Virus record (IMG/VR): IMGVR_UViG_3300025674_000058
Location: 1-52,846 of that record
DNA length: 52,846 bases
From: a virus
Taxonomy: Duplodnaviria; Caudoviricetes
Strand: one strand, 5' to 3'
The notes below the pieces were generated by a model. It was given only the letters and a program-made list of their open reading frames with translations. It made no database searches and had not been told where the DNA came from. This document shows, in pieces, positions 1 through 28,689 of the stretch (position 1 is the first letter of the stretch; the number at the start of each line of letters is the position of its first letter). A program made the translations under genes and the position numbers.

Positions 1-92
1 CTTATTTCTCCGCCAACAATCTCGAAAAACTTTTCCTCGCAAATCCGACGAATCAAAGTCGCGTCATTCTTAAAGTTTAGTTTCTTAGCCAT
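1..92 (-). CDS. partial hypothetical protein (runs off the left end)
   Basis: ATG at 92 overlapping the end of 85..489; open frame MAKKLNFKNDATLIRRICEEKFFEIVGGEI to the window edge. Confidence 0.55.
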   Translation of the reverse strand, partial: MAKKLNFKNDATLIRRICEEKFFEIVGGEI

Positions 93-489
93 ACTTCTCT
101 TGTTCTTTTTTAACAACGGATAATCTGCTTCTCATGGCTTCAAACTGCTTTTCACAGCTATCGTACAATCGTTGGTAGGTTCGGTAAGCGGCATCTGCCT
201 TTCTTACCTCGAAGTCTTTTTTGGTTACTAATATTTTCGCCCAAAAGTCGGCTTTAGAAATACTCTCCCCTTCGTTTATTTGCCCTTGCTTGTGTTGCAA
301 AAATTCCTCTTCTTTTTGGTGTTCTAACTGCAACTTATCGTAATACTTAACCGCATAAGACTCGTTCACAGTAGCTATGAGCGACGCTAAATCAGACACG
401 CAAATAGAAAGACTGTTAGGGTCTTCAAAGTTATCTCTTGCCCGCGCAACAATCTCGTCAAGCATTGATTTCAACTGCTTATATGTCAT
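85..489 (-). CDS. helical/coiled-coil protein, possibly UvsY-like recombination mediator
   Basis: 134 aa all-helical, C-terminal 'FEAMRSRLS' segment, lies near recA; function is inference. Confidence 0.4.
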   Translation of the reverse strand: MTYKQLKSMLDEIVARARDNFEDPNSLSICVSDLASLIATVNESYAVKYYDKLQLEHQKEEEFLQHKQGQINEGESISKADFWAKILVTKKDFEVRKADAAYRTYQRLYDSCEKQFEAMRSRLSVVKKEQEKYG

Positions 490-851
490 ACTAAGTATTG
501 TTTGTAAATATCAATATCCCACATAAGCTTAACTCCGAACCGAACGCAATCGTCAATAAAATCTGACACGTCTTTTGGCGGAGAAAGGGTTACTCCCTTA
601 ATGCAATAAGCATCGTCTGAGATAATAACTTCGGTTTGGTCGGCTCTTAGTGACTCGAAAAATATGTGCGCAAAATCCCGCGAAAAAGGCTTTTGGTAAA
701 TCTGAACTGCGTTGCGAATCTTCACCGCATCTTTAGTCAACCTACTGTCGTAGATTAAATCTAAAAACCTTTTTGCTTGAAACGGTGATGTGTAAAACCC
801 GTCAAACCACTCTGAGTAATCTTGCTGTTGCTCCCTAGACATTTTGGTCAA
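486..851 (-). CDS. hypothetical protein
   Basis: 121 aa ORF overlapping its neighbours in an operon. Confidence 0.7.
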   Translation of the reverse strand: MTKMSREQQQDYSEWFDGFYTSPFQAKRFLDLIYDSRLTKDAVKIRNAVQIYQKPFSRDFAHIFFESLRADQTEVIISDDAYCIKGVTLSPPKDVSDFIDDCVRFGVKLMWDIDIYKQYLV

Positions 852-1059
852 TTATTTTGTTTTCTATCGCGTTAAAAAGCGTGTCTTTTTTTCCGTCTAT
901 CTCCACCTCAACATTCAAAAACGGGAACTCTTCATAGCCATTTATATCGTAAATTGCGTTTTGTTCAGAGTCGTAGAACAATTCAAATAGAACGTCCTTT
1001 TTTCCGTAAACAACTATCTTGTAATCGTTAAGCCTCGTTTTGGTAATGGTTAGTTTCAT
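835..1059 (-). CDS. hypothetical protein (start moved to MKLTITK)
   Basis: TAnnTTTG box on the minus strand at 1068-1075 lies just upstream of ATG 1059. Confidence 0.7.
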   Translation of the reverse strand: MKLTITKTRLNDYKIVVYGKKDVLFELFYDSEQNAIYDINGYEEFPFLNVEVEIDGKKDTLFNAIENKIIDQNV

Positions 1060-1067
1060 AAACTTTG

Positions 1068-1130
1068 CAAACATACGCAAAAAAAACTTCATAAAAAACT
1101 TTTTTGTTAAATATTTTTTACCTATCTTTG
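1068..1130. promoter_or_regulatory. divergent Bacteroidota sigma70-type promoters
   Basis: TATGTTTG on minus (1068-1075) and TATCTTTG on plus (1123-1130). Confidence 0.75.
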
Positions 1131-1394
1131 CCGCGATGAGTTAAAGTTTCTCATCGGGCGAGTTGACGGCGTGCCCCAACAAAAAGGTACTGCGACGAGG
1201 ATACTTCATCGACGAGCAGAGAAAGTCAACAAGATAAAATGCGGGTTCTCCCGCGCGCGCTTGCGCGTTCTTTATCTTTGACGGCTTTTTTCTGTTTACT
1301 GCTCTAAGTTTCTTATCTCGGAGCAGTTATTACTTAGTACAGTGTTATCGTAGACTAAGTAAGATTAGATAAAACTTAATACAAAAAAAAATAA

Positions 1395-2270
1395 GTGAAA
1401 TTAGTAAGTTTAGATAGTACAGTAACCGAGAAAGTAGATGTTATTTCTACTGGTAGTTTTTTAGTAGACATGGCTTCGGGTATTGGAGGGTTTCCCCGAG
1501 GAAGGATTGTAGAGTTGTTCGGTTTTGAGTCTACTTCCAAAACAACACTTGCTATTCACACAGTAGCACAAGCAAACAAAAAAAAACTGAGAGCAGCCTA
1601 CATAGATGCTGAACACGCTTTTGACAGAGAGTACGCACAGAATCTTGGTGTGGACTTTAGCTTAACTGACTTTGGGCAACCCGACAACGGGGAGGAAGGA
1701 CTGAACGCTGTTATTGAAGCTTGCGAAAGTGGTAAGTACGGAGTTGTTGTTGTGGACTCTGTTGCTGCACTAACCCCAAAAGCAGAAATAGAAGGTCAAG
1801 TTGGCGATTCGGTTATTGGACTTCACGCAAGACTTATGAGCCAAACTTTGCGCAAACTTGTAGGAGTAGCAAACCGAACAAAAACACTTGTTATTTTTAT
1901 TAATCAGTTTAGGTCAAAGATTGGTGTTAGCTTTGGAGACCCTAGAGTAACAACAGGTGGTAACGCACTTAGGTTTTACGCTTCTATGAGGCTAGAGTTT
2001 AACCGAACAAAAGAAGACGGAAACGACCTCATCAAAATCAAATTCGTAAAAAACAAACTAGCCCCGCCATTCACAAAAACTGAAACAAAAGTTTTCTACG
2101 GCAAAGGAATCTCGCAGAGCTATGAACTCTTGCAACTAGCCTTAGAGCAAGGGATAATCACAAAGGGCGGTAGTTGGTACAAGTACAACGAAGAAAAAGC
2201 ACAAGGAGAAACCGCAGCGCTAAACATTGTGGAGGATAACTTTGAAGAAATTAAAAAACAAGTCTTTTGA
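1395..2270 (+). CDS. recA: RecA-family recombinase (short N-terminus, variant Walker A)
   Basis: ISTGS, GGFPRGRIVELFG, YIDAEHA, VVDSVAAL, ARLMSQ, IFINQ, TTGGNALRFYASMRL, KNKLAPPF motifs. Confidence 0.95.
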   Translation: MKLVSLDSTVTEKVDVISTGSFLVDMASGIGGFPRGRIVELFGFESTSKTTLAIHTVAQANKKKLRAAYIDAEHAFDREYAQNLGVDFSLTDFGQPDNGEEGLNAVIEACESGKYGVVVVDSVAALTPKAEIEGQVGDSVIGLHARLMSQTLRKLVGVANRTKTLVIFINQFRSKIGVSFGDPRVTTGGNALRFYASMRLEFNRTKEDGNDLIKIKFVKNKLAPPFTKTETKVFYGKGISQSYELLQLALEQGIITKGGSWYKYNEEKAQGETAALNIVEDNFEEIKKQVF

Positions 2271-2394
2271 AATACGTATTTAAAACAAACATTCTTGGAT
2301 AAGGTAAACGAGGCTTTAAACTACCACGAAATAAATTTGGACGAAATGTGCCTAGATTAAAAGTTTTTACTTATATTTGCCAAAACTGAAAAAA

Positions 2395-2733
2395 ATGGAA
2401 TTAAAAGCAAAATTCGTGAAGCTACTAGACTTCGCATCAGGAGAAGGAAAAAACGGTGTTTGGAAAAAACAAGAGTTCTTGGTTGAAACAGGGGATAAGT
2501 ACCCGAAAAATGTAAAGATTGTAGCTTGGGGAGAAGATGTCATCGACTCGCTAAAAGGATTTACAGGGGGCGACGATATAACCGCACACATCGACATCGA
2601 ATCTCGTGAGTACAAAGAAAAGTACTACACAGACGTAAAGGCTTGGAAGATTGAAGGAGGCTCGCAAAAAGCACCTAAACCACAAGAGCCAAAAGAGTCA
2701 CTAGCCGAGGTTGAAGACGACCTACCGTTTTAA
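2395..2733 (+). CDS. DUF3127-family OB-fold ssDNA-binding protein
   Basis: WKKQEFLVET..YPK, IESREY..KYYTDVKAWKI, acidic tail EDDLPF; promoter box 2372-2379. Confidence 0.85.
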   Translation: MELKAKFVKLLDFASGEGKNGVWKKQEFLVETGDKYPKNVKIVAWGEDVIDSLKGFTGGDDITAHIDIESREYKEKYYTDVKAWKIEGGSQKAPKPQEPKESLAEVEDDLPF

Positions 2734-2783
2734 CAAGCAATGACTAAGGGTTCTTTTGCGTATATTTGCAAAAATTTGTTATT

Positions 2784-3086
2784 ATGAAACCTTATTTACA
2801 GAAAAACGAAAAGGACGTGGACGCTGTTAGAATTAGCGACAGAGAACTAAAATCTTTGTACGAGAAAAGAGAATCCCTTCCTTTTGGTGGTGTTTACTTT
2901 GAGCCAATAGAGGTTAAGCCTAAAGGTGGCGCTCCTAGAAAGTACCGAGTGGTTTTAAAAAACTCAAAAGGTATTTTTATTGGTTACAACGGTGATTTTA
3001 TTGTTAAAGACCAAACAGGAGAACTTTCAATTTGGTCTAAGGACGCTTTTGAAGCCGCCTTTGCCTCAGTAAAAGATGCTAAGTAG
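2784..3086 (+). CDS. conserved phage protein
   Basis: GDFIVKDQTGELSIWSKDAFEAAF motif typical of a widespread small phage family; promoter box 2761-2768. Confidence 0.7.
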   Translation: MKPYLQKNEKDVDAVRISDRELKSLYEKRESLPFGGVYFEPIEVKPKGGAPRKYRVVLKNSKGIFIGYNGDFIVKDQTGELSIWSKDAFEAAFASVKDAK

Positions 3087-3336
3087 ATACAACGACGTTC
3101 GTAGCGTAACAATCATTTTCCCCTCGCAAAAACAAGAAATGCGATTTAATGTTGGCGGGGAGATTGGTCAAAGCGGAATAAAGGTAACTGCAATAATCGT
3201 AAACGAAATTTTCGTTATGGAAGGTGGAGAACCGAGAGTTGAAGTTGTGGCTATAAACACAAAAGAAGAATACCCAACAGAGAAGGTTTGGAAATCTTAC
3301 CCCTTTAGTTGGTGTGGTCTTGAACAGAATTTATGA
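3076..3336 (+). CDS. hypothetical protein
   Basis: 86 aa ORF coupled to neighbours. Confidence 0.7.
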   Translation: MLSRYNDVRSVTIIFPSQKQEMRFNVGGEIGQSGIKVTAIIVNEIFVMEGGEPRVEVVAINTKEEYPTEKVWKSYPFSWCGLEQNL

Positions 3337-4112
3337 AAAGTATCGGGCGGTTTTTAATACAAGTACCTTCAAAAAAGCAATACGAAATAAATATTGCTGG
3401 CAAGGTGTTTCATCAAGCCGCTCAATTTGGCTCAGAGTTCGATAACGTCTTTCAGTTTGGTGAAATATTAGCTTGCCCAAAAGACGAACCAATAAAAGCG
3501 GGAGATGTAGTTTACTTCTCCCACATGGTTTACAAAGACGAAAACCACATCAAGCACGAAGGAAAGGATATATTCTCAATCCCCGACAGAAAGTTTAAAG
3601 CAGACGTTGAGGGGTTTATGCCCGTTGCGCTTTTTAAGTTGAACAAAACAAACATTGAACCGCTTTACCACGTTACCGTTTGTAAACCAATAACCGAAAA
3701 GAAAAGCAAGCTATCGCTTGAAAAAGAAGTGGAGCAAAAAGCAGAGGTTATTGTCTCAAATGTTTACAAAAAAGGCGACATCGTTGAGTTTACACAACAC
3801 GCAGACTACGAGGTTAGTTATCGGGGGCAAAAGCTAAAAGCAATACACAACCGATACATAACACATTGTAACGGAGAGATTATGGAAGGGTGGTGTGTTG
3901 TAGAACCGTTTGACCAAATGCAAGAAAAAGGAAACTTATTAGTTCCTATTCGCACACTTATGGGCACGGCTTCTGTGGGTATTGTAACCGAAGGTAAGCA
4001 CAAGGGAGAAAGAGTTGTTTTCAAAAAGAACTCTGTTTTTAGAGATAATTTTAATGTAATAAAAGAGGAGCAAATTTTGGCTCTGTGGAAAGAAGATGGA
4101 CTACAAGCTTGA
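3333..4112 (+). CDS. tandem GroES-like fold protein
   Basis: repeated GroES-like strands: GEILACP..IKAGDVVYF, KKGDIVEF, GERVVF..IKEEQILA. Confidence 0.55.
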   Translation: MKSIGRFLIQVPSKKQYEINIAGKVFHQAAQFGSEFDNVFQFGEILACPKDEPIKAGDVVYFSHMVYKDENHIKHEGKDIFSIPDRKFKADVEGFMPVALFKLNKTNIEPLYHVTVCKPITEKKSKLSLEKEVEQKAEVIVSNVYKKGDIVEFTQHADYEVSYRGQKLKAIHNRYITHCNGEIMEGWCVVEPFDQMQEKGNLLVPIRTLMGTASVGIVTEGKHKGERVVFKKNSVFRDNFNVIKEEQILALWKEDGLQA

Positions 4113-4413
4113 GTATGAAAAACTAAAAAAGGAATACGATAAATTAGTGGAGGTTTTTTCAGATGAGATTGACGCTAATTTGTACGTAACCTTGCGCTAC
4201 AAACTAAAGCAAATGACAGAAGCTTTGGGCGATGTTCAGTACGACATCAATAGCGACAAAGACGACAAGCTTCAAGAGCGCGTAGATAGGTTTTATACCA
4301 ACATACCCAAAGTTTATCAAGCCATAGAACTCACAAAGTCAAAGGCAACTGTGGAATCTCGAAAGAAAGCGCAGTTAGGCTTCTCGCCTGAAAGTTATGC
4401 CAACAAAGGGTAG
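4096..4413 (+). CDS. putative terminase small subunit
   Basis: 105 aa helical ORF overlapping the large terminase start; positional inference. Confidence 0.45.
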   Translation: MDYKLEYEKLKKEYDKLVEVFSDEIDANLYVTLRYKLKQMTEALGDVQYDINSDKDDKLQERVDRFYTNIPKVYQAIELTKSKATVESRKKAQLGFSPESYANKG

Positions 4414-6460
4414 CGAAGAAAAAAAAGCGTACTTAGCATTTAAGCGAGAGAGAACTCTTCGCGGTGGGATTCAAATAACCTTACCTTCCCCACCAAACAT
4501 AACCGACATTGCCAACTACGGGGTAAAGGACGAAAACAAAAGAACATTTCCTTACGTCAACTTAAAAGAAGAGTTTGACACGCAACCCCCCGAAATAAAG
4601 AAAAAAATAGCAGACCGAGAACACACAAGGGTAAGGCGTGGTTTTTGGTTCTTTAACGGGAGCAACGACAACATAACCCTAGAGTACGTTACAGGCGACC
4701 ACTACTTTTTATTAAACTATTTTCCAATCACAATAAGCAAGGTTGACGGCTCTACGGGTGGGGTTGGAAACGCAAGCTTTATCGACGCGCAAAGAGATTT
4801 GTGGTACGTTTGGGAGTACGTTAAAACAAACCCAAACCTTCACGGGCTACTGCTTTTCTCAGGTCGTCGTTTTTCTAAAACCACCTTTGCTTGTGCTAAC
4901 GGCTACCTTTCTACAATAAGCCAATACGCGGCTAACTTCGCCATTCAGTCAAAGACACGAAACGATGCGAAAGACAAAGTTTTTGGGGATATTATTATTC
5001 GGGCTTGGAAAAAGATGCACCCACTTTGGAAACCAAAATCCACAGGAAACGCAAACCCAAAGACAGAACTTGTTTTCGATATGCCCTCATCCAAAAAGGA
5101 GGAGCTTGGCGGGGAAACGGGCGACTATTTAGGCTCTCGTATTTATTACGAATCAGCATCCAACGCAGCCCTCGACGGTTCGCGAAACACGTTTGTTTAT
5201 CACGATGAGATTGCAAAACCCGAAACGGGTGTTGACCCTGAGAAAAGGTGGTACATTTCAAGACCTACTTTAGAGGACGGCGCAAACATTATAGGTAAAG
5301 CAATACTGACAACAACAGTAGACGACGACCAAACCGAAAAGGCAGCGGCAGAAGCTACTAGAAGTTTGTTCGATAAATCAGACCCAAACGAATTAGACCC
5401 ATTTCTAAAAAGTACAAAGAGTGGTCTTATTCGGTATTTTAACCCAGCTTGGTACGGGTTTAGAGGCTCGCACGAAGGGCAAGCTTTTATTGATAAGTGG
5501 GGGTACTCACAAATTGAGTTTACCAAAAAGTATCACGAGGCTAAAATGTCTAGGTTAACGGGAAACGACTTAATATCTTATAGAAGGAAGTTTCCTCAAG
5601 ATGAGTCTGATATATTTTTAGCAGACACAAACTCTTCGCCACTTGACCTTAAAAACATTTACGACCAATACGAATTTAACGAAAACGGTGGGGCAGACCA
5701 CCTAAGACGCGGGGACTTTTACAGAGAGGGAGGTCACGACGAGGGTATCGTTAAGTTTAAATCACACGGAAACGGAAGGTGGCTTATTAGCGAGTTGTCG
5801 AGGTTAGAAGACCAAAACGCTTATGTGTTTAGAAACGGTCAGATGACCCCCGCAAGGGACGAGTTTAGAATTGGCGTTGACCCAATCGACACGGGAGAAA
5901 CGGTAGATAAAGACGGCTCTAACGCTGCTGCTTTAGTTAGCGGTGCAAACGGAACAGAGTGGTGCGCCTTGTACTTACACAGACCTCCAAAGCCTGAGAT
6001 ATTTTACGAAGATATGATTATGGCTGCTGAGTTTTATTCCGCGCCGATTCTAATTGAAAGAAACAAAGTAGGGTGTGTTAACCACTTCGTCGACAGGGGG
6101 CGTTCGGGCTACTTACTTCACGACCCATTAGAAACCGACATAAAAAGAAGACTCAAAGCTTTTGGTTTTTACATGAAGGACGAAACAAAACGAAGAGAGC
6201 TTGTGAACATACTCATAAGCCACGTTTACGACTTTATAGGAAGAAGGGCTGATGGTTTTGGGGTTTGTCCCTTTAATGAACTTTTGGACGATTGGACTAA
6301 GTTTGAACCTTCAAAGAAGTGGACAAAGAATGACTTGTCGGTTGCCTCGATGTTAAGCTTGGCTGCTTGGCGCAATCCTATAAACAAAGTTTCGCACAGG
6401 CACATAAAAAGGTTGTTGCCAAAGTTTGATAACTCAGGGAAAATAAGTAGAAGAATATGA
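4397..6460 (+). CDS. terL: terminase large subunit
   Basis: GRRFSKT ATPase motif, YHDEIAK Walker B, IGVDP nuclease motif, ILIERN, NDL; TGDHYFLLNY N-terminal motif of Bacteroidota phage terminases. Confidence 0.9.
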   Translation: MPTKGSEEKKAYLAFKRERTLRGGIQITLPSPPNITDIANYGVKDENKRTFPYVNLKEEFDTQPPEIKKKIADREHTRVRRGFWFFNGSNDNITLEYVTGDHYFLLNYFPITISKVDGSTGGVGNASFIDAQRDLWYVWEYVKTNPNLHGLLLFSGRRFSKTTFACANGYLSTISQYAANFAIQSKTRNDAKDKVFGDIIIRAWKKMHPLWKPKSTGNANPKTELVFDMPSSKKEELGGETGDYLGSRIYYESASNAALDGSRNTFVYHDEIAKPETGVDPEKRWYISRPTLEDGANIIGKAILTTTVDDDQTEKAAAEATRSLFDKSDPNELDPFLKSTKSGLIRYFNPAWYGFRGSHEGQAFIDKWGYSQIEFTKKYHEAKMSRLTGNDLISYRRKFPQDESDIFLADTNSSPLDLKNIYDQYEFNENGGADHLRRGDFYREGGHDEGIVKFKSHGNGRWLISELSRLEDQNAYVFRNGQMTPARDEFRIGVDPIDTGETVDKDGSNAAALVSGANGTEWCALYLHRPPKPEIFYEDMIMAAEFYSAPILIERNKVGCVNHFVDRGRSGYLLHDPLETDIKRRLKAFGFYMKDETKRRELVNILISHVYDFIGRRADGFGVCPFNELLDDWTKFEPSKKWTKNDLSVASMLSLAAWRNPINKVSHRHIKRLLPKFDNSGKISRRI

Positions 6461-7140
6461 TTTGGGAAAACTTCAATAATTGGCAAAAAAGACTTTGGTA
6501 CGTCCCCGAAGATGTGGCGCAAAAGGTTGGTAGTGTAAAAACGGGAAAAAACGTAGCAATACTTGAACACAAGGGGGAAAAAATAGACTTAGGCTACGCG
6601 GTAGCTAAATCATCCGACTTAATGGCAAAGGTGCATCAAGGAAAGGGTGGCTTGGAATGTGAGTGGGCTTTTAATCGCGGCGTTTATAGTATAGATTGCA
6701 AAATACAAGAACCGATAATAAGCGGTCTTTGGCACGCACCACTATGGTTTATAAGTGAAAGCAAAAACGAAATAATGCCCGAAATAGACGTTTGCGAGGC
6801 TTACTATGGTGTAAAAAAGAACCACGCAGATATTTTCCGCGCACTAGGGATTCCGAGTAATTGGTGGATAAAAACAAGGCGAATGGAATCCAACCTACAC
6901 TTTGGAAAGGTTTACAAATCAAAGCACCACCACAAAGAGGGAAATATAAATCACGGCTCAAAGGACTTCACAGATTGGGTAACTTACAAAATGGTTTGGG
7001 ACAGGGACGTGGAGATTTTTTACAACGACAAAAGGGTGCGGGTTTTTAAAAACTTTCGCTCTCCCGCAAACCTCATCCCGATAATTTCAGCGTCGAACGG
7101 AAAAATAATTGCAACAAATTTTTCGTATTCAAGTTTTTAG
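6457..7140 (+). CDS. glycoside hydrolase family 16 protein
   Basis: GLWHAPLWF...PEIDVCEAY (EIDxxE catalytic motif), SNLHFG, YKMVWD. Confidence 0.75.
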   Translation: MIWENFNNWQKRLWYVPEDVAQKVGSVKTGKNVAILEHKGEKIDLGYAVAKSSDLMAKVHQGKGGLECEWAFNRGVYSIDCKIQEPIISGLWHAPLWFISESKNEIMPEIDVCEAYYGVKKNHADIFRALGIPSNWWIKTRRMESNLHFGKVYKSKHHHKEGNINHGSKDFTDWVTYKMVWDRDVEIFYNDKRVRVFKNFRSPANLIPIISASNGKIIATNFSYSSF

Positions 7141-7142
7141 TT

Positions 7143-7150
7143 TACTTTTG
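7143..7150 (+). promoter_or_regulatory. -7 promoter box abutting the cassette crossover
   Basis: TACTTTTG followed directly by tcAAC core at 7153-7155. Confidence 0.65.
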
Positions 7151-7282
7151 TCAACCTTTTGCGGTAAACTCTCGTTGCCGTTTTAAATACGAGAGGTTAA
7201 TTTTCAAATTACAACAAAATGAAAGACAAAGAACAAAACATCAAAAAACAACAAGGCAATGGAGTTTTACCGTGTGTTAGCG
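7149..7282 (-). mobile_element. attC-like site A1
   Basis: AAC-cttttg-CGGTAAACTCtcgTTGCC (7153-7179) pairs with GGCAAtgGAGTTTTACCG-tgt-GTT (7255-7278). Confidence 0.75.
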
Positions 7283-7563
7283 GTAGTATTAATGTGCATA
7301 AAAGAACAAGATTGAATCAGCGACAAGTACAGTCAAATTCTTGTTTTTTCAATGTTGACGAAGATATAATTGTAATAGTTGACCGTGAAAAAATAATATT
7401 TAAAAAGCCAACAATAGATTATATGGGCAAAACAATAAAACCAAAAGCCTTGTCAAGTGGGTGGGTTACATTTTCGATTGTAGCAGATTTACCAATTACA
7501 AAAGAATTAGAATTTGACGATGAAGAAAGCACGGAAGATAGATTGGTAGTATATTACCGCTAA
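7219..7563 (+). CDS. cassette-borne hypothetical protein (cassette A1, 7155-7563)
   Basis: 114 aa; ATG inside the attC loop; stop TAA lies in the attI-like core; GTTAGCGGTAGTAT (7276) matches the reverse complement of ATATTACCGCTAAT (7551) at 12/14. Confidence 0.8.
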   Translation: MKDKEQNIKKQQGNGVLPCVSGSINVHKRTRLNQRQVQSNSCFFNVDEDIIVIVDREKIIFKKPTIDYMGKTIKPKALSSGWVTFSIVADLPITKELEFDDEESTEDRLVVYYR

Positions 7564-7603
7564 TGTCGGCTATGTGAACCAAAAGTATAGAATAACGGAG
7601 GTA
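7558..7603 (-). mobile_element. attI-like site A
   Basis: TAATgtcgGCTATGTGAACCAAAAGTATAGAATAACGGAGGTA, one of four copies; core AAC changed to AAT. Confidence 0.7.
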
Positions 7604-7675
7604 GGTAAATAATTACGCCACTTTTTACGTGTTGTTTAATTATTTTGCGTATGTTTGCCAAACAAATAAAAACAA

Positions 7676-8098
7676 ATGAAAAAAGTATGGGATTTTTACC
7701 ACGATAGTAAGTTTGTTTACTCTTCGTTGGATTTGGTTGATATGAAAAGCTACGTTAAAGACTACTTGGGTAGTGAGTGGGAAAAGCGTGGCGAGCTTGC
7801 GGTTTGGGACAGAACGGTTGACGGTTTAAAAGAAACTTGCCGAATTAGCTTGCGCTCTTACAAGGGTTTAGCTCTTGTTGACCGAAAAAATTACTATTCA
7901 AACAAAAAAATTCGGCGAAAAGTTGACGCTGAATTAAAAAAGTTAGCATATTTGCAAGCACAAATAGGAACTAAACAAAAAGATGACGAACAAATAGTAC
8001 GTGAAATGGCGGAGATTACAGAAGTAATAAACACCATAGACCCTACTTTTCTAAATAATGAAAACGAATATGACGCAGAAACAGAAAGAAAGAGTTGA
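7676..8098 (+). CDS. hypothetical protein
   Basis: 140 aa ORF; promoter box TATGTTTG 7650-7657. Confidence 0.75.
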   Translation: MKKVWDFYHDSKFVYSSLDLVDMKSYVKDYLGSEWEKRGELAVWDRTVDGLKETCRISLRSYKGLALVDRKNYYSNKKIRRKVDAELKKLAYLQAQIGTKQKDDEQIVREMAEITEVINTIDPTFLNNENEYDAETERKS

Positions 8099-8537
8099 TA
8101 AAATATTGGAAGTTGTATCAATGGTAAACAACATACCAATTAGTGAGATAAAGCAAAAAGGCTCAAGGAACAAGTACGTAGTTCTTTCCAAAAAGGTTTG
8201 TATGTACTTGATTAAAAACGACCCTTGGTTAAGGAGAATGACTTTAGAGTCCGTCGGGGCTATTTTCCAAACAGACCACTCCAACACCATACACCACCTT
8301 CGTAGGTGTGAGGAAGCTATGACCCCTGATAGGATGGGGCGGTTCACAAGCAACCCGAATTTAAGAAAGGTAATACTTGACTGCCAAAAATTACTTGAGG
8401 TAATTCACGGCATAAAGCCAAGTAAACCAAAAACTGAAAACCTTTGGGCTTTAGTAAAGGGATTAGAAGAACAAAGGGATTATATAGAAAACGAAATTCA
8501 ATTAGCTAAAAACAAAATTAACGCTTTATACCAATGA
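8058..8537 (+). CDS. DnaA domain-IV-like HTH DNA-binding protein
   Basis: SRNKYVVLSKKVCMYL..MTLESVGAIFQTDHSNTIHH resembles Bac_DnaA_C (RDHSTV). Confidence 0.7.
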   Translation: MKTNMTQKQKERVDKILEVVSMVNNIPISEIKQKGSRNKYVVLSKKVCMYLIKNDPWLRRMTLESVGAIFQTDHSNTIHHLRRCEEAMTPDRMGRFTSNPNLRKVILDCQKLLEVIHGIKPSKPKTENLWALVKGLEEQRDYIENEIQLAKNKINALYQ

Positions 8538-8776
8538 TAGTACCAAAAGGAAACTTAGTCTTAGTAGAAAAGATTGAAACAAAGAGCAAGATAGAACTTT
8601 CTCCAAGCGCAAAAGAACACACCCAAGAGGCTGTTGTTGTTCGGGTGGGGGATGCGGTCACTCAAGTCAAAGAAGGGGAGAAAGTCCTTCTTTCAAAGTC
8701 AAACAACATAGAGGTCAAAGAGGGGGGTAAAACCTATCAACTCGTTTACGAAAGCTCTATATTAGCGGCGTTATGA
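8534..8776 (+). CDS. groES: co-chaperonin GroES
   Basis: PKGNLVLVE, AVVVRVG, VKEGEKVL, LVYESSILA; 80 aa. Confidence 0.85.
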   Translation: MIVPKGNLVLVEKIETKSKIELSPSAKEHTQEAVVVRVGDAVTQVKEGEKVLLSKSNNIEVKEGGKTYQLVYESSILAAL

Positions 8777-8889
8777 TAGAACTTATTCATTTTGTGGCGG
8801 AGGAGCTAGGGCATCCCATAATCCAAGAGGACGCAGAAAGCATTTTGGATGACTTTTTGAGTGGAGATAATCGGGAATTATCCGATTAA
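8773..8889 (+). CDS. small hypothetical protein (38 aa)
   Basis: ATGA overlap with groES stop; MIELIHFVAEELGHPIIQEDAESILDDFLSGDNRELSD. Confidence 0.5.
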   Translation: MIELIHFVAEELGHPIIQEDAESILDDFLSGDNRELSD

Positions 8890-8909
8890 CAATGTAGATA
8901 ATAACAGAA

Positions 8910-9617
8910 GTGAACAACCAAGAAACATACTCTTTTAGTAGATTAAGTACCATAGAAACTTGTCCTAAAAGTTTTGAATACAAGTATGTTTTAGGAGAGT
9001 CAGAAGAGGGTAATTGGTTTTCTGATTTGGGTAGTTTTGGGCATTTGCTTTTGGAGCTTTACGACAGGGGTAAAATAAAAAACTTAGGTTCTGTTTACCG
9101 AAAGTATTTAAGAAAAAGGGTTCAGTTACCCACGTTTACTTGGGCGCACAAATGGGAACAACAGTGCCAAGACTTTTTCGACACCTTCGATGGTTGGTCA
9201 ACCGATGCCGTTTGGATAGAGAAGTACCTAAACTTTCCAATAGACGACTTCAACCTTCAAGGGTTCGTGGATAGGGCGAGTTACACCAAGAGGGGCTTTA
9301 CAATAGTTGATTACAAGGTGGCTAACATTTTTAAGGGCGAAAAGCTCCGCCAAAAGGCACGACAACTTTACCTTTACGCTTACGGAACAAAACAAGAAAT
9401 TGGAGAGTACCCAAGAGATTTAATCTTTTATCATTTCCGCCAAAAGACCCCCGTAATAATACCTTTTAAAGAAAAAGATATGATAGAGGCAGTTGATTGG
9501 GCAAAGAGAATGGTGGAGAAGATAAGAACCGAAAAAGAGTACAAACATAATTTTGATAAGTTTTTTTGCGAAAATATTTGTAGTTTCAGAAAAATTTGTA
9601 CCTTTGGTGAACTATGA
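8910..9617 (+). CDS. PD-(D/E)XK exonuclease (AddB/Cas4-like)
   Basis: YSFSRLS..CP, GFVDR, IVDYK, QLYLYA, C-terminal FCENICSFRKIC. Confidence 0.88.
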   Translation: MNNQETYSFSRLSTIETCPKSFEYKYVLGESEEGNWFSDLGSFGHLLLELYDRGKIKNLGSVYRKYLRKRVQLPTFTWAHKWEQQCQDFFDTFDGWSTDAVWIEKYLNFPIDDFNLQGFVDRASYTKRGFTIVDYKVANIFKGEKLRQKARQLYLYAYGTKQEIGEYPRDLIFYHFRQKTPVIIPFKEKDMIEAVDWAKRMVEKIRTEKEYKHNFDKFFCENICSFRKICTFGEL

Positions 9618-9763
9618 TAAAAGATTTAATAGAAGAACTAATTGAACAAAAGGCAAACCCGTATCAAGCACTCGTTGTTTTATCGGTTATGCAAAATGAC
9701 ATTAGCGCGGCAAAAAACTTTTTGGAGTGTTACGAAGAATACTTAAATGACTTACCTCGATGA
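9614..9763 (+). CDS. small hypothetical protein (49 aa)
   Basis: ATGA overlaps at both ends; promoter box TACCTTTG 9599-9606. Confidence 0.55.
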   Translation: MIKDLIEELIEQKANPYQALVVLSVMQNDISAAKNFLECYEEYLNDLPR

Positions 9764-9972
9764 AAAATATAATCGCCCACATGAAGGCTGATAAATCTTT
9801 TTTTGTATTCGTTTTGTGTGTATTCATAGTGATTCCTCTTCTGCTTGTTTGGTTAGAACAATCGCAGGAGGGGGATGACTATATCCCACAATTATTAACC
9901 ACAGGGTTGTTTGTCATATTGGCAATAGCAGCAATAATAAACCACATAAAATGGCTTTTTCGTCGGCGCTAA
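9760..9972 (+). CDS. small two-TM membrane protein
   Basis: two hydrophobic stretches, basic C-terminus. Confidence 0.7.
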   Translation: MKNIIAHMKADKSFFVFVLCVFIVIPLLLVWLEQSQEGDDYIPQLLTTGLFVILAIAAIINHIKWLFRRR

Positions 9973-10361
9973 TATTGTTTTTAATAGCGGGTGCTATGAA
10001 CGGGTTAATGGATGTGTTAGCCCATCATTGGTACGGCTCTGTGTTTTTTAACATGAAAGGTTTTTGGTACAGGTTTTTTCACGAAGATAGTTGGAGAAAC
10101 AAGTACGTAAACGGTTGGGATTTTGCGGCGAACAAGTACGTAAGAAACAATACACCAATAGCTTTCACGGACGGTTGGCACTTGGCTAAAAGCGTTATGC
10201 TTTGGTGCTTGAGTTTGGGTGCTGGGCTTAGTTTAATTTCGGGCTTTCCTTTTAACGACATTTGGACTCTTATTATTTGCGTCGTATTGTTTAGGGCATC
10301 TTTCGGCGCAGGGTTCGCGATTGTATATTACACTTTAAAAAATGGTAGGGGACAGTTTTAA
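9951..10361 (+). CDS. membrane protein
   Basis: hydrophobic helices; SWRNKY..TDGWHLAK motif. Confidence 0.75.
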   Translation: MAFSSALILFLIAGAMNGLMDVLAHHWYGSVFFNMKGFWYRFFHEDSWRNKYVNGWDFAANKYVRNNTPIAFTDGWHLAKSVMLWCLSLGAGLSLISGFPFNDIWTLIICVVLFRASFGAGFAIVYYTLKNGRGQF

Positions 10362-10560
10362 AATATGTTGGGGTGGAGAAACCTATGATGTGGTAGTTTG
10401 GTACACAAGAACCGAAGAAAGGGGTGATTATTGGAATCCTAGCTTTAGTAGCATAGACTTGGAAATTGAAAGCATAAACGACGACACCGACCACCCACTA
10501 AAAAACGAGGGCGACTTCATAACTTTAGTTGAGGAAGAAATTGATTGGAGAGGACATTGA
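10342..10560 (+). CDS. acidic hypothetical protein
   Basis: 72 aa ORF overlapping the previous gene. Confidence 0.65.
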   Translation: MVGDSFKICWGGETYDVVVWYTRTEERGDYWNPSFSSIDLEIESINDDTDHPLKNEGDFITLVEEEIDWRGH

Positions 10561-10759
10561 GAGCGCAAAAGGCTTGGAACGCGGTTGCAAACGCACAAGT
10601 AAGAGTCCATTAGATTGTTCGGAACATAACGACTGCGCTCTTTTAGAGTCTAACATTTATCGGATATGTGTAAAGAAAGCAGACAATAACGGAGTGCTTC
10701 TTAACCAAAACAACACTTAGCTATTTCTTTGTTTATCTTTGCACTAAATTAGTGCTTAA

Positions 10760-13123
10760 ATGTCAGACAGGCTATTAGGTTTTCCTTCTCCCTTTAAAAC
10801 CGCAAAAGAAAAAAAATCACCCAAGTACGGGTTAGAGTACGCTAAGGCTATTTGGAGTCGCGCACAACACGGGCGGTTCGACGCTTTCTATTCCCGCCAA
10901 AAGCGAATAATTGAAAACCGAGAGTGGGCTAGGGGTACACAATCAATAGACCACTTAAAAGACCTAGTTTCCACAGGGGGCGACCTATCGTACCTTTCTA
11001 TGAATTGGAACGTAGCAAACCCAATCCCCAACTTAGTAAACACCTTTGTAAACAAAACCGTAGAAAGAGATTACGATGTGGTTGTGTCAGCCCTTGACAA
11101 AACAAGCAAGGGAGAGCTTGACAAAATTCGATTAGAAACCTACAATAAGGTTTTTATGAAAAAGAACAAGGCTCGATTGGAAGAGTTGGGTTTAAAGATT
11201 TCCGATTTGGAAGCCGTTGAGTCAGCGCCTGATAGTTTCGCGGATGCTGATTTTGATTTAGAGCTAAACGCCAAAACCGAGCTAGAAGAGTTTCTTGAAA
11301 CGGGTATAAACTTCGTATTTAACAACAACGGAATAGAAGAAATAAAGGAAACGGTTGCGAGGGATATTTTTGAAAACGGTTACGGCTTTGTTCGCACTGG
11401 ATTCGACCACAACCGAGACCCTTACATTCGGGCGGTTGACATAAAAAACTTCGGGTTCTCATATTGTAAGAAAAGAGATTTCAGCGATTGGGCTTATTTT
11501 TACGAAATTCTTGAAATGCCCCTTAGCCAACTTAGAATGCGTTTGGGGGATAAAGCGTTCACAGAGGATGAATGGTTCAACATCGCTAAGTCAAGCGCGG
11601 GTCAGTACGGAAACCAATCGTGGACTTACGGTTCTTATTACGGAGAAAGAAATTATGATTTTAGCGACTACGCTGATTTTAATATTTTGGCGATGGATTT
11701 TGTCTTTAAGACTGTCGACCAAAAAAGGTTCATAAAGAAGCAAACAAAGAAAGGTAACGGATATTACTACGAGGAAAGGGATTTAAAACAAGACCTTAAA
11801 AAGGAGCGCGGAATTGAGCGCATAGATGATAAGAACATCGAAGTAATGTACGAAGGGCTTTGGATTGTCGGCACGCAGCACATTAGAGATTACAAGCTTT
11901 GCGAAAATATGCTTCGCCCGCGAGAGGACGGTATTTACTCAACAAGGGTAGTTAGCCCGTTTGTTGGTTTTGCCACAGACCTTTTAGATATGGAAACTAA
12001 GTCTAAGGTGGAGCAAATGACTCCAATAGCGGAACAAATGATGTTGCTTGACCTAAAGACCCAACAGATTATCGCGCAATCAAGACCGTCGGGTTTGGCG
12101 ATAGACGCTTACTCAATAGCTTCGGTTCAAGATGCTTTAGGAATAGATTACGACACAGAAGAGGCTATCGCGATGTACGACCAAAAGGGGTCTGTGTTCT
12201 ATTCGTCTAAAGGAGAGGACGGCTCGCACCAAAACAACCGCCCAATAACCGAGTTAGCAAACGGCATACCAAACAACATTATAACGGTAATAGAATTGTA
12301 CAACGCTGCTTTAGCAAAGCTTTATCAAGTGTCAGGGTTTAACCCAAGCGTTGATGGGACTAGCTCTGACAAGGATGCTTTGGTGGGTGTTGAAAGGATG
12401 CGAGAGGCTGCTCACAACAACGCGGTGCGCCACCTAACAAGTGCTTACGCGAAAATCATAAGTTCTGCCGCTAGAAACTGCGGGTTGTTGGTTCAAGATG
12501 CTTTAGAGTTCTACGGTAAGCAAAAGGGTTGGGATTTTGCTATTGGAAACCTTCGGGTGGAGGGCTTGAAAGATTCGGCTAAGTACAACTACGCTGAAAT
12601 GGGAATTACCATAAGGTTTAGACCCACCCACCAAGAGATGCAAGACTTCATTGATTCGTTGGCTATATCTTTACAAAACCAACAGATAGATGTAACAATA
12701 ATGACTCGCGCCAAAAGGATTGCAAGCACAAGTATAAAGGCTGCTGAAAGATACCTAGAGGGTGCGAGCAAGAAGTTCCAAGAGGCTAAGTTTAAAGAAA
12801 GCTTACAACTTCAAGAAGCCAACGGGAAGGTTCAAATGGAGTCTAACGTGGTATCTGAGCAACAAAAAAGAGAAACCTTACAGCTCGAATACGACCTTAA
12901 ACTACGCAACGAGATTGAGGTTTATAGGTTGGGTAGAATACCTCAAGAGGAGGTTCGCGGAGATAAGGATATTGAGCGAGCTATTGTAGAGGGAGACATT
13001 AAGAAAGAACTTGTGGAGTTGGCAACAGACCAAACCCCACAAAGCTCCGATTTAAGACAAACATCTATTCCAAAAGGTTCGGGTGTAAGAGAGCCGAAGG
13101 TGTTTCCTCAACAAGCGACGTAA
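10760..13123 (+). CDS. portal protein
   Basis: 787 aa; YGLEYAKAIW, DLSYLSMNW..PIPNLVN, VMYEGLWIVGT motifs of Bacteroidota/crAss-like portals; upstream of scaffold and capsid. Confidence 0.88.
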   Translation: MSDRLLGFPSPFKTAKEKKSPKYGLEYAKAIWSRAQHGRFDAFYSRQKRIIENREWARGTQSIDHLKDLVSTGGDLSYLSMNWNVANPIPNLVNTFVNKTVERDYDVVVSALDKTSKGELDKIRLETYNKVFMKKNKARLEELGLKISDLEAVESAPDSFADADFDLELNAKTELEEFLETGINFVFNNNGIEEIKETVARDIFENGYGFVRTGFDHNRDPYIRAVDIKNFGFSYCKKRDFSDWAYFYEILEMPLSQLRMRLGDKAFTEDEWFNIAKSSAGQYGNQSWTYGSYYGERNYDFSDYADFNILAMDFVFKTVDQKRFIKKQTKKGNGYYYEERDLKQDLKKERGIERIDDKNIEVMYEGLWIVGTQHIRDYKLCENMLRPREDGIYSTRVVSPFVGFATDLLDMETKSKVEQMTPIAEQMMLLDLKTQQIIAQSRPSGLAIDAYSIASVQDALGIDYDTEEAIAMYDQKGSVFYSSKGEDGSHQNNRPITELANGIPNNIITVIELYNAALAKLYQVSGFNPSVDGTSSDKDALVGVERMREAAHNNAVRHLTSAYAKIISSAARNCGLLVQDALEFYGKQKGWDFAIGNLRVEGLKDSAKYNYAEMGITIRFRPTHQEMQDFIDSLAISLQNQQIDVTIMTRAKRIASTSIKAAERYLEGASKKFQEAKFKESLQLQEANGKVQMESNVVSEQQKRETLQLEYDLKLRNEIEVYRLGRIPQEEVRGDKDIERAIVEGDIKKELVELATDQTPQSSDLRQTSIPKGSGVREPKVFPQQAT

Positions 13124-13389
13124 ATCTCTTTACATCGGTTAAGAAACTGAAACACGCCTAAGTTAAAAACAAAGGCTATCTTCTCTAAAGAAAGAAGTGG
13201 TGGTGTGTGGTTTCCTTTTTCTATTTTAAGAATTAAGCTTCGACCAACCCCCGCTAATTGCGCGAGTTCGTTTTGCGACAACCCCGCTTGCTCTCTTAGT
13301 TTTAGCACGCCATAGGCGATACATTTATTTGTTTGCTTATTATAAGCCTCAAACCTTTTGCTTTCCAAAATTACATTAGATACTTCCAT
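13108..13389 (-). CDS. XRE/Cro-type HTH transcription regulator
   Basis: LREQAGLSQNELAQLAGVGRSLILKIEKG..P.L..LEKIA; own promoter box 13397-13404. Confidence 0.85.
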   Translation of the reverse strand: MEVSNVILESKRFEAYNKQTNKCIAYGVLKLREQAGLSQNELAQLAGVGRSLILKIEKGNHTPPLLSLEKIAFVFNLGVFQFLNRCKEIYVAC

Positions 13390-13479
13390 ACGGCTGCAAA
13401 GATACAAAAATGTTTTTAAAAGCAAACAAGAGGCAGTTTTTTTTCGGGGTATTTTTGCAATAATTAAAAATTAGTTGAT

Positions 13480-16289: not shown

Positions 16290-16339
16290 TTCTAACGTAT
16301 CACGGCTATGTGAACTAAAAGTATAGAATAACGGAGGTA
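16290..16339 (-). mobile_element. attI-like site B (no complete cassette)
   Basis: TAACgtatcacgGCTATGTGAACTAAAAGTATAGAATAACGGAGGTA; nearly identical to site A but 8 nt spacer. Confidence 0.65.
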
Positions 16340-16386
16340 TCATACCTAGAACATCACTATTGGGTTTTTATTCGTAATTTTGTAGT

Positions 16387-16861: not shown

Positions 16862-17158
16862 ATGAAATCACGTTCAGCAAGATACTACAAAACAGGCTCA
16901 ACAGTAAAGGGTAAAAGTAACCCTAAGGCAGCAAAAGCGGCTCGCGCAAAAAAAGCGGCAACTGACAAAAAGATAAACGCCCGCCCTGAGCAAAAAGCAA
17001 AGCGAAGGGAGTTAGCAAGGGAGCGAAGAAAGCGCGGAATAATGGGTAAGGGTGGAAAAGACCTATCTCACACTAAAAACGGACTGCGCTTAAAGTCGGT
17101 AAAGGCTAATCGAGGAAGTCGCTCAGATAGTTCGGGCGATAAAAGGGCTAGGGGCTAA
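16862..17158 (+). CDS. highly basic protein with degenerate HNH-like motif
   Basis: GKDLSHTKNG...ANRG; very K/R-rich. Confidence 0.65.
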   Translation: MKSRSARYYKTGSTVKGKSNPKAAKAARAKKAATDKKINARPEQKAKRRELARERRKRGIMGKGGKDLSHTKNGLRLKSVKANRGSRSDSSGDKRARG

Positions 17159-17535
17159 CCGTTCCAAAGCCTTCTTTTGATATTCTTTTTGTGCTTTGTC
17201 AAGAACAACTTAATCTCTTGTGGGTTTAGTTCCTCTATTTTATTTTTCGATTGTATCTTATCTAGCGCGTCAAAGCAATCCCCAACGGGTTTATCGCAAA
17301 GTTCGGCTATTTGTTGGAGTTGACTTAACAAAAGCCTGTCCATACCCCCACGCTCGAATATAAGGTTCATTTGCGACCTTGTGAGTTTTAGGGTTCGGTA
17401 GAACTGCTCGTGTGTTACGCCGTTTTCTAAAAACCAAACCTCAATATCGTTTAATGTTCTTCGGCAAAGTTTAGAGCCTCTGTAATAGTTTACCTTACCT
17501 ATTCCTTTATCTATGTAATAATATTTTGCTGCCAT
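17155..17535 (-). CDS. hypothetical HTH-like protein
   Basis: own promoter box 17541-17548; helical pattern VTHEQFYRTLKLTRSQMN. Confidence 0.6.
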   Translation of the reverse strand: MAAKYYYIDKGIGKVNYYRGSKLCRRTLNDIEVWFLENGVTHEQFYRTLKLTRSQMNLIFERGGMDRLLLSQLQQIAELCDKPVGDCFDALDKIQSKNKIEELNPQEIKLFLTKHKKNIKRRLWNG

Positions 17536-17590
17536 AGTTGCAAATATAACAAAAAAATACATATCTTTGTCGGGGAAAGTAAAAAAATAA

Positions 17591-26991: not shown

Positions 26992-28689
26992 ATGAGTTAC
27001 GTACCAACAACACAACAACAGGGACAGGGTGGCGCTCAAGTAGGGCAAGCCCAAGCATTACCTCAGTTAGATTTTACGGGGGCTAGAATTGCCGTCGACT
27101 CAATGAAAGAGGCAAAGGAAGCGGCGCGTCTTGCGGAGCAAAAACAAAATGAGGCTCAGTCTAAACTAAACGAAAGGTTTGGGGTTCTTAGAGCCGTCAT
27201 GTATCCACCAGCACTACAAGGTGGTTATGATAACTTTATAGAGTCAACCCTAGAACAAATAGAAAAAGACCCTAGAAACGCTATAGCATATATTTCTGAG
27301 GCGGAAGAGACAAAAAAGATTTATGACGAAAGGGCTAAGTTATTATCTAAAGACGCGTTTGATTTAACGCAAAAAGATGTTTACTTCAAAGACCCTGCGC
27401 TTGCGGCTTTTAACGACTACGATTCGGTTAGAGCCTCGGGGGAAACAGACCCTTTTAAAATATCAGAAGTTGTTTATAGCGCATTGGGTCAGGCTGTACC
27501 CGTAAATGAGAACTTAGGAAAAGATATTTACGATTTTTCAGGGCGATTAGCGGCTGAACTATCAAACACCGAGGGGGCTGAAAATCTTTTTGATGGTGGT
27601 TTAAATGTAGTTAGAGAGGGCGGTTTTGTTGGCGCTCAATTGGTTCAAAAACTAAGCCCCGAAGGTCGAGAATATGTTATCGACCAAATTTACGGTACGC
27701 CCGAAGTTCAAAAACAGTTAGTAGGCAAGTTCTTTAGCCCCGACCCAACCGAAACCGAGCGATTAGCTAAGGATTACATTCGTAAAAACATAGGCTTTGA
27801 AAAGGTAATGGGGCTAAGTCAAGCATCGTCTGGCGGTAGAGGTAGAGATAATGTTGGTATTTCTATTTCAGATGGGGTTGGCGAGGTTAAGAACAGTTTT
27901 GCGGACGCTAAGAGGCTTGGGGTTGCTAGTGTTAGACCTAAAGAGATTTTTATGTCGCCCTATCTTCAAGAAGAAATAAAAGTAACCGCTGACGTAAATC
28001 AAGACGGGCAAGGTGAGAGCTTAACGGGTAAGGTTGTTCGACTTACGGCTAATGCAAGCGGAGAGCCTGTTGTTGTAGTAGAGGTTAAAAAACCCTATGA
28101 CCCTTCAAACCCAAGCTCAGCAAGCGAAAGAATAAATATAGAAGTCCCTTACGAGGGTGTAAAAGACGACATTCTTCAAAACATTCGCGAGCAATATGGA
28201 GAGAAAAGAGGAAAGGTTATATTTGACACTATATCTGAATGGGAGGGGATGATAGGCGATATGGAGAAAACGCCTTTCCCTGAAAAGGAATTGGAGAGTA
28301 CGTACAACCAACTTCATAAAATAGCCACATCGTCAGAGAGTGACGAGAAAAAGACATCGCAAATACAACAGTTATTGGGTAGAAGTGATGTTAGTTACGT
28401 TGGCGGGTTTAGTACCACAGACCTTAATGTTGGTGGAAAAGAAGTTAAGTTATTTAAGTTTGGTAGTAAAGCTAAATTATCGGGCGAAGACCTTGAAGAA
28501 ACATTATCCACCCTATATGATGCCGATGCTATAATAAGTGGTCAAGAGTCGCCCACCGAACCAACAAATGAGAATAAGAATTATACGGAAGCGGAAGAAT
28601 CTGGCATAAAGGCGGTAATGGAAAGTAACGGAGTTACAAGGGAAGAGGCAATAGAGGCGTTGATTGAGGCGGGGAAAATAAGTAGATAA
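26992..28689 (+). CDS. putative ejection protein
   Basis: 565 aa between small and giant ejection genes. Confidence 0.6.
   Translation: MSYVPTTQQQGQGGAQVGQAQALPQLDFTGARIAVDSMKEAKEAARLAEQKQNEAQSKLNERFGVLRAVMYPPALQGGYDNFIESTLEQIEKDPRNAIAYISEAEETKKIYDERAKLLSKDAFDLTQKDVYFKDPALAAFNDYDSVRASGETDPFKISEVVYSALGQAVPVNENLGKDIYDFSGRLAAELSNTEGAENLFDGGLNVVREGGFVGAQLVQKLSPEGREYVIDQIYGTPEVQKQLVGKFFSPDPTETERLAKDYIRKNIGFEKVMGLSQASSGGRGRDNVGISISDGVGEVKNSFADAKRLGVASVRPKEIFMSPYLQEEIKVTADVNQDGQGESLTGKVVRLTANASGEPVVVVEVKKPYDPSNPSSASERINIEVPYEGVKDDILQNIREQYGEKRGKVIFDTISEWEGMIGDMEKTPFPEKELESTYNQLHKIATSSESDEKKTSQIQQLLGRSDVSYVGGFSTTDLNVGGKEVKLFKFGSKAKLSGEDLEETLSTLYDADAIISGQESPTEPTNENKNYTEAEESGIKAVMESNGVTREEAIEALIEAGKISR

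Follow-up and report, generated by a model that had tools for sequence, protein, structure and literature searches.

The stretch between positions 7143 and 7603 raises the question of how small accessory genes come to lie between the core genes of a tailed phage and how they are read. The initial annotation saw here an integron-like array with inverted cassettes, in which every ORF would run towards an attI-like site and phage transcription would enter from the oldest, distal end, without a promoter inside attI. The window, i.e., the whole stretch of DNA analysed, comprises the entire IMG/VR record of a virus (52,846 bases), whose completeness is rated at 94%. Both ends of the record overlap with metagenome contigs (L022, L027, and L029), and from these overlaps the gap between 52846 and 1 is estimated at ~8 kb. 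The plus strand (1395-41627) carries RecA-like, terminase, portal, capsid, and tail genes together with a 2672-aa ORF without a family, and the minus strand (41618-52846 and 85-1092) encodes primase/helicase and numerous small ORFs. The portal protein is ~25-28% identical to those of Cellulophaga, Flavobacterium, and Maribacter podoviruses, and the window phage is a lytic podovirus of the Flavobacteriia type. Megablast against the GenBank phage collection returned no close relatives of the window.

Several parts of the genome away from 7143-7603 deserve mention in their own right. The 2672-aa ORF (28689-36707) lies at the end of the structural module, and neither Pfam nor PHROGs assigned it to a family, nor did a PDB sequence search produce a match. 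Two minus-strand genes, 13108-13425 and 17155-17562, oppose the plus-strand structural module, each within a gap of 350-430 nt; the first encodes a Cro/CI-type HTH protein (HTH_3, 3.9e-11), and neither has the junction motif described below on its flanks. Near the strand switch, a 495-nt gap between minus-strand genes (41812-42308) contains an inverted match to window positions 6505-6539 (35 nt, 80%). In the part of the genome missing from the record, ~1.4 kb (L027:293-1705) holds no ORF of more than 77 aa on either strand and no tRNA gene, and may be an origin or a non-coding region; scans for tRNA genes found none.

The stretch 7143-7603 is probably one accessory-gene slot, in which an ORFan separates the end of a core gene from the next operon's regulatory module (Table 1). 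The upstream core gene is 100% identical in the relative L019, and its sole Pfam signal is a weak match to Glyco_hydro_16, under the Pfam cut-off. The ORFan belongs to no Pfam or PHROG family, and a search of 5.8 billion clusters retrieved just 3 homologues, 67-99% identical to it. The two annotated genes of the downstream operon encode a helix-turn-helix (HTH) protein resembling DnaA domain IV (Pfam Bac_DnaA_C, 2.2e-10) and a GroES-like protein (Pfam Cpn10, 1.7e-11). The unit of motif plus promoter in front of this operon is ~79% conserved in L022, L025, L026, and L029, where it precedes other genes. The short hairpin element at the left of the slot shares its design, and a similar loop, with elements in L026 and in the phage G001, and its predicted fold is not significant (z -1.22, 24/200 shuffles equally good).

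Table 1. Positions of the features discussed, given in the window unless a contig is named.
Feature	Position	Strand	Details
RecA/UvsX-like gene	1395-2270		Pfam and PHROGs
Upstream core gene, 227 aa	6457-7140	+	From the ORF list; stop TAG 7138-7140
TACTTTTG, match to Bacteroidetes -7 promoter box	7143-7150	+	Followed by TC and AAC (7153-7155)
Short hairpin element	7152-7201	+	CAAC, 13-nt spacer, 7-bp stem, loop, second arm, GTTA
Accessory ORFan, 114 aa	7219-7563	+	TAA stop inside the repeat 7558-7605
Strong junction motif, copy w1	7558-7605	+	Sequence model R1, 59.2 bits; overlaps the ORF stop codon
TATGTTTG -7 box	7650-7657	+	18 nt before ATG 7676; predicted promoter of the next core operon
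Downstream core operon	7676-8776	+	140-aa gene; HTH gene 8058-8537; GroES-like gene 8534-8776
Motif copy w2	10654-10696	+	Before the portal gene
Motif copy w3	16295-16340	+	After the capsid gene region
Motif copy w4	46415-46460	-	Closes array D before core gene 45291-46355
Motif copy w5	49093-49137	-	Within array D, 26 nt before ATG 49067
Hairpin D-d, long	47563-47687	-	z -1.77, 10/200 shuffles equally good
Hairpin D-c, long	49333-49419	-	19-bp stem; preceded by a second hairpin at 49455-49416
Hairpin D-b, long	49633-49757	-	z -3.10, 0/200 shuffles equally good
Array D entry	49988-50060	-	TTG-N19-TAACTTTG box (50060-50053), then stop TAA within TAAC (50050-50047)
Hairpin D-a at array D entry		-	z -2.67; terminator-like stem and T-run (50004-49983)
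Methyltransferase slot loci	L022:3077-3769; L025:207-1088, 1321-1746; L026:119-2556; L002:4757-5419		

The repeat that closes the slot is a strong motif of ~45 nt. A sequence-only model, built from 13 copies with the 5 window copies among them, was run against 120,646 bases (the window and related loci) and found exactly those 5 copies in the window and nothing further to E = 10. All 5 copies are co-oriented with the local genes, lie at the downstream end of a variable stretch, and start on or immediately behind the stop codon of a small ORF. At 4 of the 5, a TAnnTTTG box follows 35-45 nt downstream, 4-18 nt before the next start codon, and the gene that comes after it is a core gene. These boxes are at 7650, 10734, 16375, and 46373; that of copy w4 (46380-46373) precedes its ATG by 17 nt. 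Copy w5 is instead followed by a small GC hairpin and lacks a -7 box, a short layout that recurs in the unrelated phage G001 and its relative L002. Because w5 and the copies of the G001 type have no -7 box, the motif is not simply the upstream element of a host-type promoter. Stem pairing within the motif was considered and rejected: folding is no better than that of shuffled sequences (z +0.66 for w1, with 149/200 shuffles equally good, and -1.21, +0.38, and -0.17 for others), and no positions co-vary across the 13 copies, so that the strong motif is not a hairpin site. A search of the genomes of 185,579 species with the motif pattern gave a single match, in a Clostridiales MAG, which we judged to be due to chance; a relaxed pattern, applied to viral contigs, added only two look-alikes without the left part of the motif. 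Both a Cpn10 (GroES-like, window 8534-8776) and a Cpn60 (GroEL-like, L022:3881-5368 and L029:1621-3108) are encoded by the phage lineage, and a copy of the strong motif lies upstream of each. The lineages have a further short junction sequence in common, ~20-31 nt long (window 46848-46878, minus strand; L002:4739-4758; L026:979-1009), whose L002 copy directly precedes the strong motif.

The TAnnTTTG box itself is named a Bacteroidetes-specific promoter motif in the available text of PMC10309648. The window contains 95 such boxes, compared with 64 ± 8 in shuffled sequences; 17 lie near a co-oriented start, 12 of these at 2-25 nt before the start codon. Arrays A and D each have a promoter-like -7 box at their upstream edge, that of array D with a TTG at N19. 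The box at 7143 has no -33 TTG (none 17-21 nt upstream) and is 68 nt from the ATG. The initial annotation had drawn attention to the proximity of this box to the AAC, as if promoter and crossover site adjoined; the box and the AAC are present as described, but an AAC follows within 0-4 nt at 13/95 boxes, against ~12% expected, which is chance level. On the opposite strand, a full TTG-N19-box match occurs inside the motif at 1 of the 5 copies (46432-46439), and a second copy has just the box (7587-7580). A promoter lying antisense within the motif was rejected as a candidate: the box is intact in only 2 of the window's 5 copies and missing from those of the L022 type. Generic scans for sigma-70-type promoters and for terminators both stayed at shuffle level.

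As to the direction of reading, the array ORFs that could be placed all point to a strong repeat downstream (1 in array A, 12 in array D, and 3 in the array B insertion of L019), and the array D gene 50048-50404 (-) does stop next to an AAC, its stop codon (50050-50048) being the TAA of TAAC, with the AAC 2 nt later. To call this orientation opposite to that of canonical cassettes, however, depends on naming the repeat attI: the supposed reverse expression logic arises because the repeat was so labelled, and the ORFs run with the flanking operons. A Pc promoter reading into the cassettes is not what is seen here, since the -7 box beside 4 of the 5 strong copies points out of the array and into the core gene that follows. 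That phage transcription reads the slots from the far end is the simplest prediction, in that the ORFs are co-directional and -7 boxes lie upstream, but the inverted cassettes, the attI, the AAC crossover, and the "oldest end" that accompanied this proposal are not supported. The slot ORFs are ordinary co-directional operon passengers; they follow the direction of their own operons, to which the idea of a reversed integron adds nothing.

Comparison with relatives reveals how the slots change. The breakpoints that could be mapped come from three comparisons. L019 is 96% identical to the window over 3191-10633 and carries, in array B, ~1.1 kb of extra DNA with 3 ORFs just upstream of the motif copy of the portal gene; the right-hand edge of this block lies inside the motif, with 4/17 mismatches to the left of the AATAAC block and identity to the right. 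In L029, which is 92-97% identical to window 1-4044, the early operon opens with ~2.2 kb of DNA whose five ORFs of at least 72 aa are absent from the window, and both edges of this insert fall within copies of the same promoter box and its flanks. Between L022 and L029, a block has been replaced whose left edge lies inside the 3' end of a gene and whose right edge lies at the motif. Some of the homology edges coincide with the AAC at the 5' end of the motif or lie near an AAC. Relatives thus differ by whole blocks of small ORFs, and every mapped right-hand edge falls in the motif-plus-promoter module, at a varying position. The variation in breakpoint position fits homologous recombination between repeated modules and speaks against a fixed crossover such as that at the G/TT core of integrons. 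The ORFs of the exchanged blocks in the three comparisons belong to no recognised family. Elsewhere the cargo is recognisable: L022, L025, and L026 have the motif, the promoter, and the GroEL-like gene in common, and differ in the DNA methyltransferases upstream, which are N6_N4 in L022, C-5 plus N6_N4 in L025, and D12 plus N6_N4 in L026. In L002, a C-5 methylase stands before the DnaA_C operon where G001 has a 107-aa ORF. (This 107-aa ORF and the 114-aa ORF of the window slot were compared, and no homology was found.) The slot upstream of the motif of the GroEL-like gene looks like a hot-swap slot for anti-restriction genes.

We therefore favour, at a probability of roughly 0.6, a reading in which PeSL-like modules allow accessory genes to be swapped by homologous recombination and to be expressed as operon extensions. 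The turnover of genes follows from the comparison of relatives, the mechanism is our inference, and the promoters, read-through, and termination are predictions from the sequence. Accessory genes, including DNA methyltransferases, would be exchanged by homologous recombination between the repeated regulatory modules, a process in which the phage's own RecA-like protein could serve. Once in place, the slot ORFs would extend the upstream transcription unit and be expressed by read-through, from a local promoter, or both, and the module of motif and TAnnTTTG box would restart or regulate transcription of the core gene. At the entry of array D, read-through would be limited by the terminator-like hairpin with its T-run. 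The motif is not a PeSL in the strict sense of promoter plus terminator.

Many slot ORFs are followed by an imperfect hairpin of recurrent design: YAAC and GTTR form its two ends, the arms pair in a stem of 7-21 bp closed by a loop, and the spacer after YAAC is longer than the one before GTTR. We chose 14 hairpins located between ORFs, 12 of which are matches to a two-box pattern, the others being the left site of array A and one L019 element recognised by eye; pattern matches inside or across ORFs, or duplicating a shorter match, were dropped (3/7 in the window, 3/7 in L029, 3/3 in L022, and 1/2 in L014). In all 14, the longer spacer adjoins the stop of the upstream ORF (4-13 nt vs 0-7 nt). 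Given that this polarity follows transcription on both strands, it points to a role in RNA, and the hairpins may act by attenuation or termination, or as processing or stabilising structures. Hairpin D-b has two related copies in L029, with 7 of 28 pairs still pairing after changes on both sides, and the region around hairpin D-c (49328-49460) folds with a z of -5.29. The design is dense in the arrays and is not enriched genome-wide: the TAAC-stem-GTTA pattern occurs 11 times in the window against a mean of 14 in 30 Markov controls, and for the two-box pattern the count is 15 against a control mean of 7.7 and maximum of 20. An AACG soon after the stop codon is found at 11/73 genes against a background of 8%, a modest excess concentrated in array D. 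Rfam gave nothing at the gathering threshold; over 46300-50200 there were only sub-threshold matches to three unrelated families, far below gathering scores (best E 0.26).

Some further observations concern the coding content around these hairpins. Three paralogous small ORFs of the early region (49141-49338, 50401-50589, and 50616-50798, minus strand) are 54-72% identical, and the first two were flagged by a repeat finder as a 165-nt direct repeat. The listed 88-aa GTG ORF 49457-49723 (-) overlaps hairpin D-b; a 45-aa ORF from the ATG at 49593 is more likely to be the gene. Past the window end at 52846, L022:5692-6000 (= L027:39-293) encodes a 102-aa protein that matches Ribonuclease_3 with 26.4 bits against a cut-off of 27, and neither PHROGs nor a PDB sequence search supported the assignment; if real, this protein could cut the long intergenic hairpins.

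In layout, the hairpins invite comparison with the attC sites of integrons, and this resemblance counts against our reading: the YAAC/GTTR ends, the unpaired spacer, the semi-conserved inner arms (TATRTG/CAYATA), the variable centres, and the overall length of 47-127 nt are all reminiscent of attC, stop codons often lie within TAAC, gene content varies at the arrays, and some homology edges fall at AAC. In addition, the accessible text of PMC9892861 reports attC clusters without an integrase in virulent phages, including a Polaribacter phage, with 5/6 tested phage attC sites recombined by IntI1 and methyltransferase cassettes among their cargo. Integron-like arrays would consist of attC-like hairpins, an attI-like motif, a crossover at AAC/GTT, and inverted cassettes, mobilised by a recombinase of the host or one that escaped recognition. 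Against this, no integrase or tyrosine recombinase was found among the window ORFs (73 searched with Pfam, 72 with PHROGs), and no recombinase among the 40 ORFs of L019, L022, L025, L026, L027, and L029, the contigs covering the gap. Only the 4-nt YAAC/GTTR ends are common to the 14 hairpins, as the attC core consensus RYYYAAC fits 1/14 and GTTRRRY 0/14. The sites bounding 7143-7603 fail single-strand folding (left z -1.22, right z +0.66), the hairpin patterns are at the control levels given above, breakpoints fall in a promoter box, in the motif, and in the 3' end of a gene as well as at or near AAC, and hairpin polarity follows transcription on both strands. Nor do ORFs stay with their own 3' elements: the frame ending in motif copy w3 (at 16326) shares 47% identity, across 38 aa, with an ORF in L019 array B (7498-7710), with a hairpin at the 3' end of one and the strong motif at that of the other, and the three early paralogues (ending at 49141, 50401, and 50616) have three different 3' contexts.

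The spacer asymmetry bears on the same issue. In attC nomenclature, a double prime designates the arm next to the end of the cassette ORF. PMC3053210 gives the names T12'' and G20'' to the pair of extrahelical bases in attC. When the orientation of ORFs is tabulated against spacer asymmetry, the extra bases lie by the upstream stop in 14/14 hairpins, i.e., on the same side as in canonical attC, so that the ORFs would not be inverted even if the hairpins were taken as attC-like, an outcome that the initial annotation had itself named as refuting its proposal. Taken together, we consider an integron-like origin of the arrays very unlikely.

A different mobile-element reading would make the hairpins the ends of non-autonomous elements of the IS200/IS605 type, inserting 3' of a TAAC-like target and moved by a host HUH transposase. 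Strand-polar hairpins adjoining a conserved tetranucleotide, and the presence of the same element family in two unrelated phages, are what such elements would lead one to expect, but the phage carries no transposase, the exchanged blocks lack a pair of left-end and right-end hairpins, their breakpoints are variable, and the search of the 185,579 species' genomes, which was made with the strong-motif pattern and not with the hairpins, gave 1 chance match. This reading appears extremely improbable.

The strong motif itself extends beyond the lineage of the window phage. It is ~95% identical, in one copy each, in G001, a complete phage of 33.4 kb, and in its relatives L002, L005, and L006, and G001 and the window phage have only three proteins in common (blastp, E 1e-4 or better). 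The C-terminal 159 aa of the tail-fibre-like protein 38569-40101 are 83% identical to a tail gene of G001 (L015). The sequences suggest that G001 and the window phage share a host and exchange modules. In both lineages, the gene for a Bac_DnaA_C HTH protein (window 8058-8537; L005:2378-2842) lies one gene downstream of a copy of the motif, the two proteins being 24% identical (E 5e-6), and the motif contains a TGTG block that we take to resemble half of a DnaA box. Given this proximity in both lineages and the half-box-like block, the motif is a possible, if tentative, candidate operator for the DnaA-domain-IV-like HTH protein of the phage.

Alternatively, the strong motif could itself serve as a promoter, recognised by a non-housekeeping sigma factor or by an RNA polymerase that the phage directs. 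The conserved blocks, with their fixed spacing, would be the recognition elements, and the arrays would end where middle or late units begin. The spacing is strictly maintained, with no indels between the TATGTG and AATAAC blocks in 13/13 aligned copies; no TAnnTTTG box separates the motif from the start codon, 26-35 nt away, at w5 and in G001/L002, and copies precede the portal gene, the GroEL-like gene, and the GroES operon. However, in neither phage could a sigma factor or RNA polymerase be recognised, sequence searches with the 2672-aa protein returned neither a family nor a solved structure, the two phages share so few proteins, a separate host-type box lies downstream of 4 of the 5 window copies, and we know of no promoter class into which the 11-nt spacing of the blocks would fit. 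We regard this possibility as unlikely.

That a motif is ~95% identical in two unrelated phages could also mean transfer by a dedicated mechanism. Hairpins and half-site motif would then form a single-strand site-specific recombination system with a core of its own, distinct from classical integrons and served by an enzyme of the host or one not recognised. Although we hold this to be quite improbable, unrelated flavobacterial phages sharing a host would, if it were true, trade anti-restriction and other accessory genes, with the motif as a docking site. Should the exchange rest on homologous recombination, as we prefer, a gene-swapping mechanism of T4-type coliphages would be extended to a very different phage and host group. 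The hot slot of the relatives carries different DNA methyltransferases, which are likely anti-restriction genes. Two features merit further attention, namely, the nearly invariant motif of two unrelated phages and the family of strand-polar hairpins with conserved 4-nt ends. Among the papers listed by a full-text literature search, none appeared to describe such modules in these phages.

The closest parallel is provided by the PeSLs of T4-type phages, which the available text of PMC2839356 and PMC4122927 describes as promoter-bearing repeats in ORFan-rich regions, where homologous recombination inserts, deletes, or replaces genes without a dedicated recombinase. Like PeSLs, the modules reported here are short, repeated, intergenic, and equipped with a host-type promoter; they lie in variable, ORFan-rich regions in which the indels and replacements of relatives map to the modules, with no dedicated recombinase, with the phage's own homologous recombination genes, and with co-directional ORFs. 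Unlike in PeSLs, the conserved ~45-nt part is not a stem-loop, and hairpins are found as separate elements behind single ORFs; the promoter belongs to the TAnnTTTG type of Bacteroidetes, the phage is a Flavobacteriia podovirus, and the same motif is common to two unrelated phages. With integrons and the attC clusters without integrase, as the accessible sections of PMC9892861 present them, the arrays have in common small, promoter-poor ORFs, each followed by an imperfect AAC...GTT palindrome, stops that often lie in the first core, swapped methyltransferases, and no integrase nearby. They differ from integrons in that the 7-nt core consensus and a fixed crossover are both absent, ORFs travel separately from their 3' elements, and the half-site module lies downstream of the ORFs with its promoter facing away. 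By the spacer lengths scored, the hairpins also appear to differ from attC in having an asymmetric internal loop (4-13 vs 0-7 nt) where attC has paired single extrahelical bases.

Two other phage systems offer more partial likenesses. In phage T7, RNase III processing hairpins lie between the genes of the early polycistronic region. By analogy, the hairpins reported here may be compared with those of T7, being long, intergenic, co-oriented with transcription, placed right after coding sequence, and interrupted by an asymmetric internal loop, whereas their lower stem is only ~4 bp and the only hint of a phage RNase III-like protein is the sub-threshold Pfam match in the relative L022. Morons of lambdoid phages are single, self-contained units of promoter, gene, and terminator. 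The slots resemble them in adding extra genes between core genes, with transcription signals of their own or borrowed ones; unlike morons, the inserts of this phage lineage share repeated junction sequences and form arrays.
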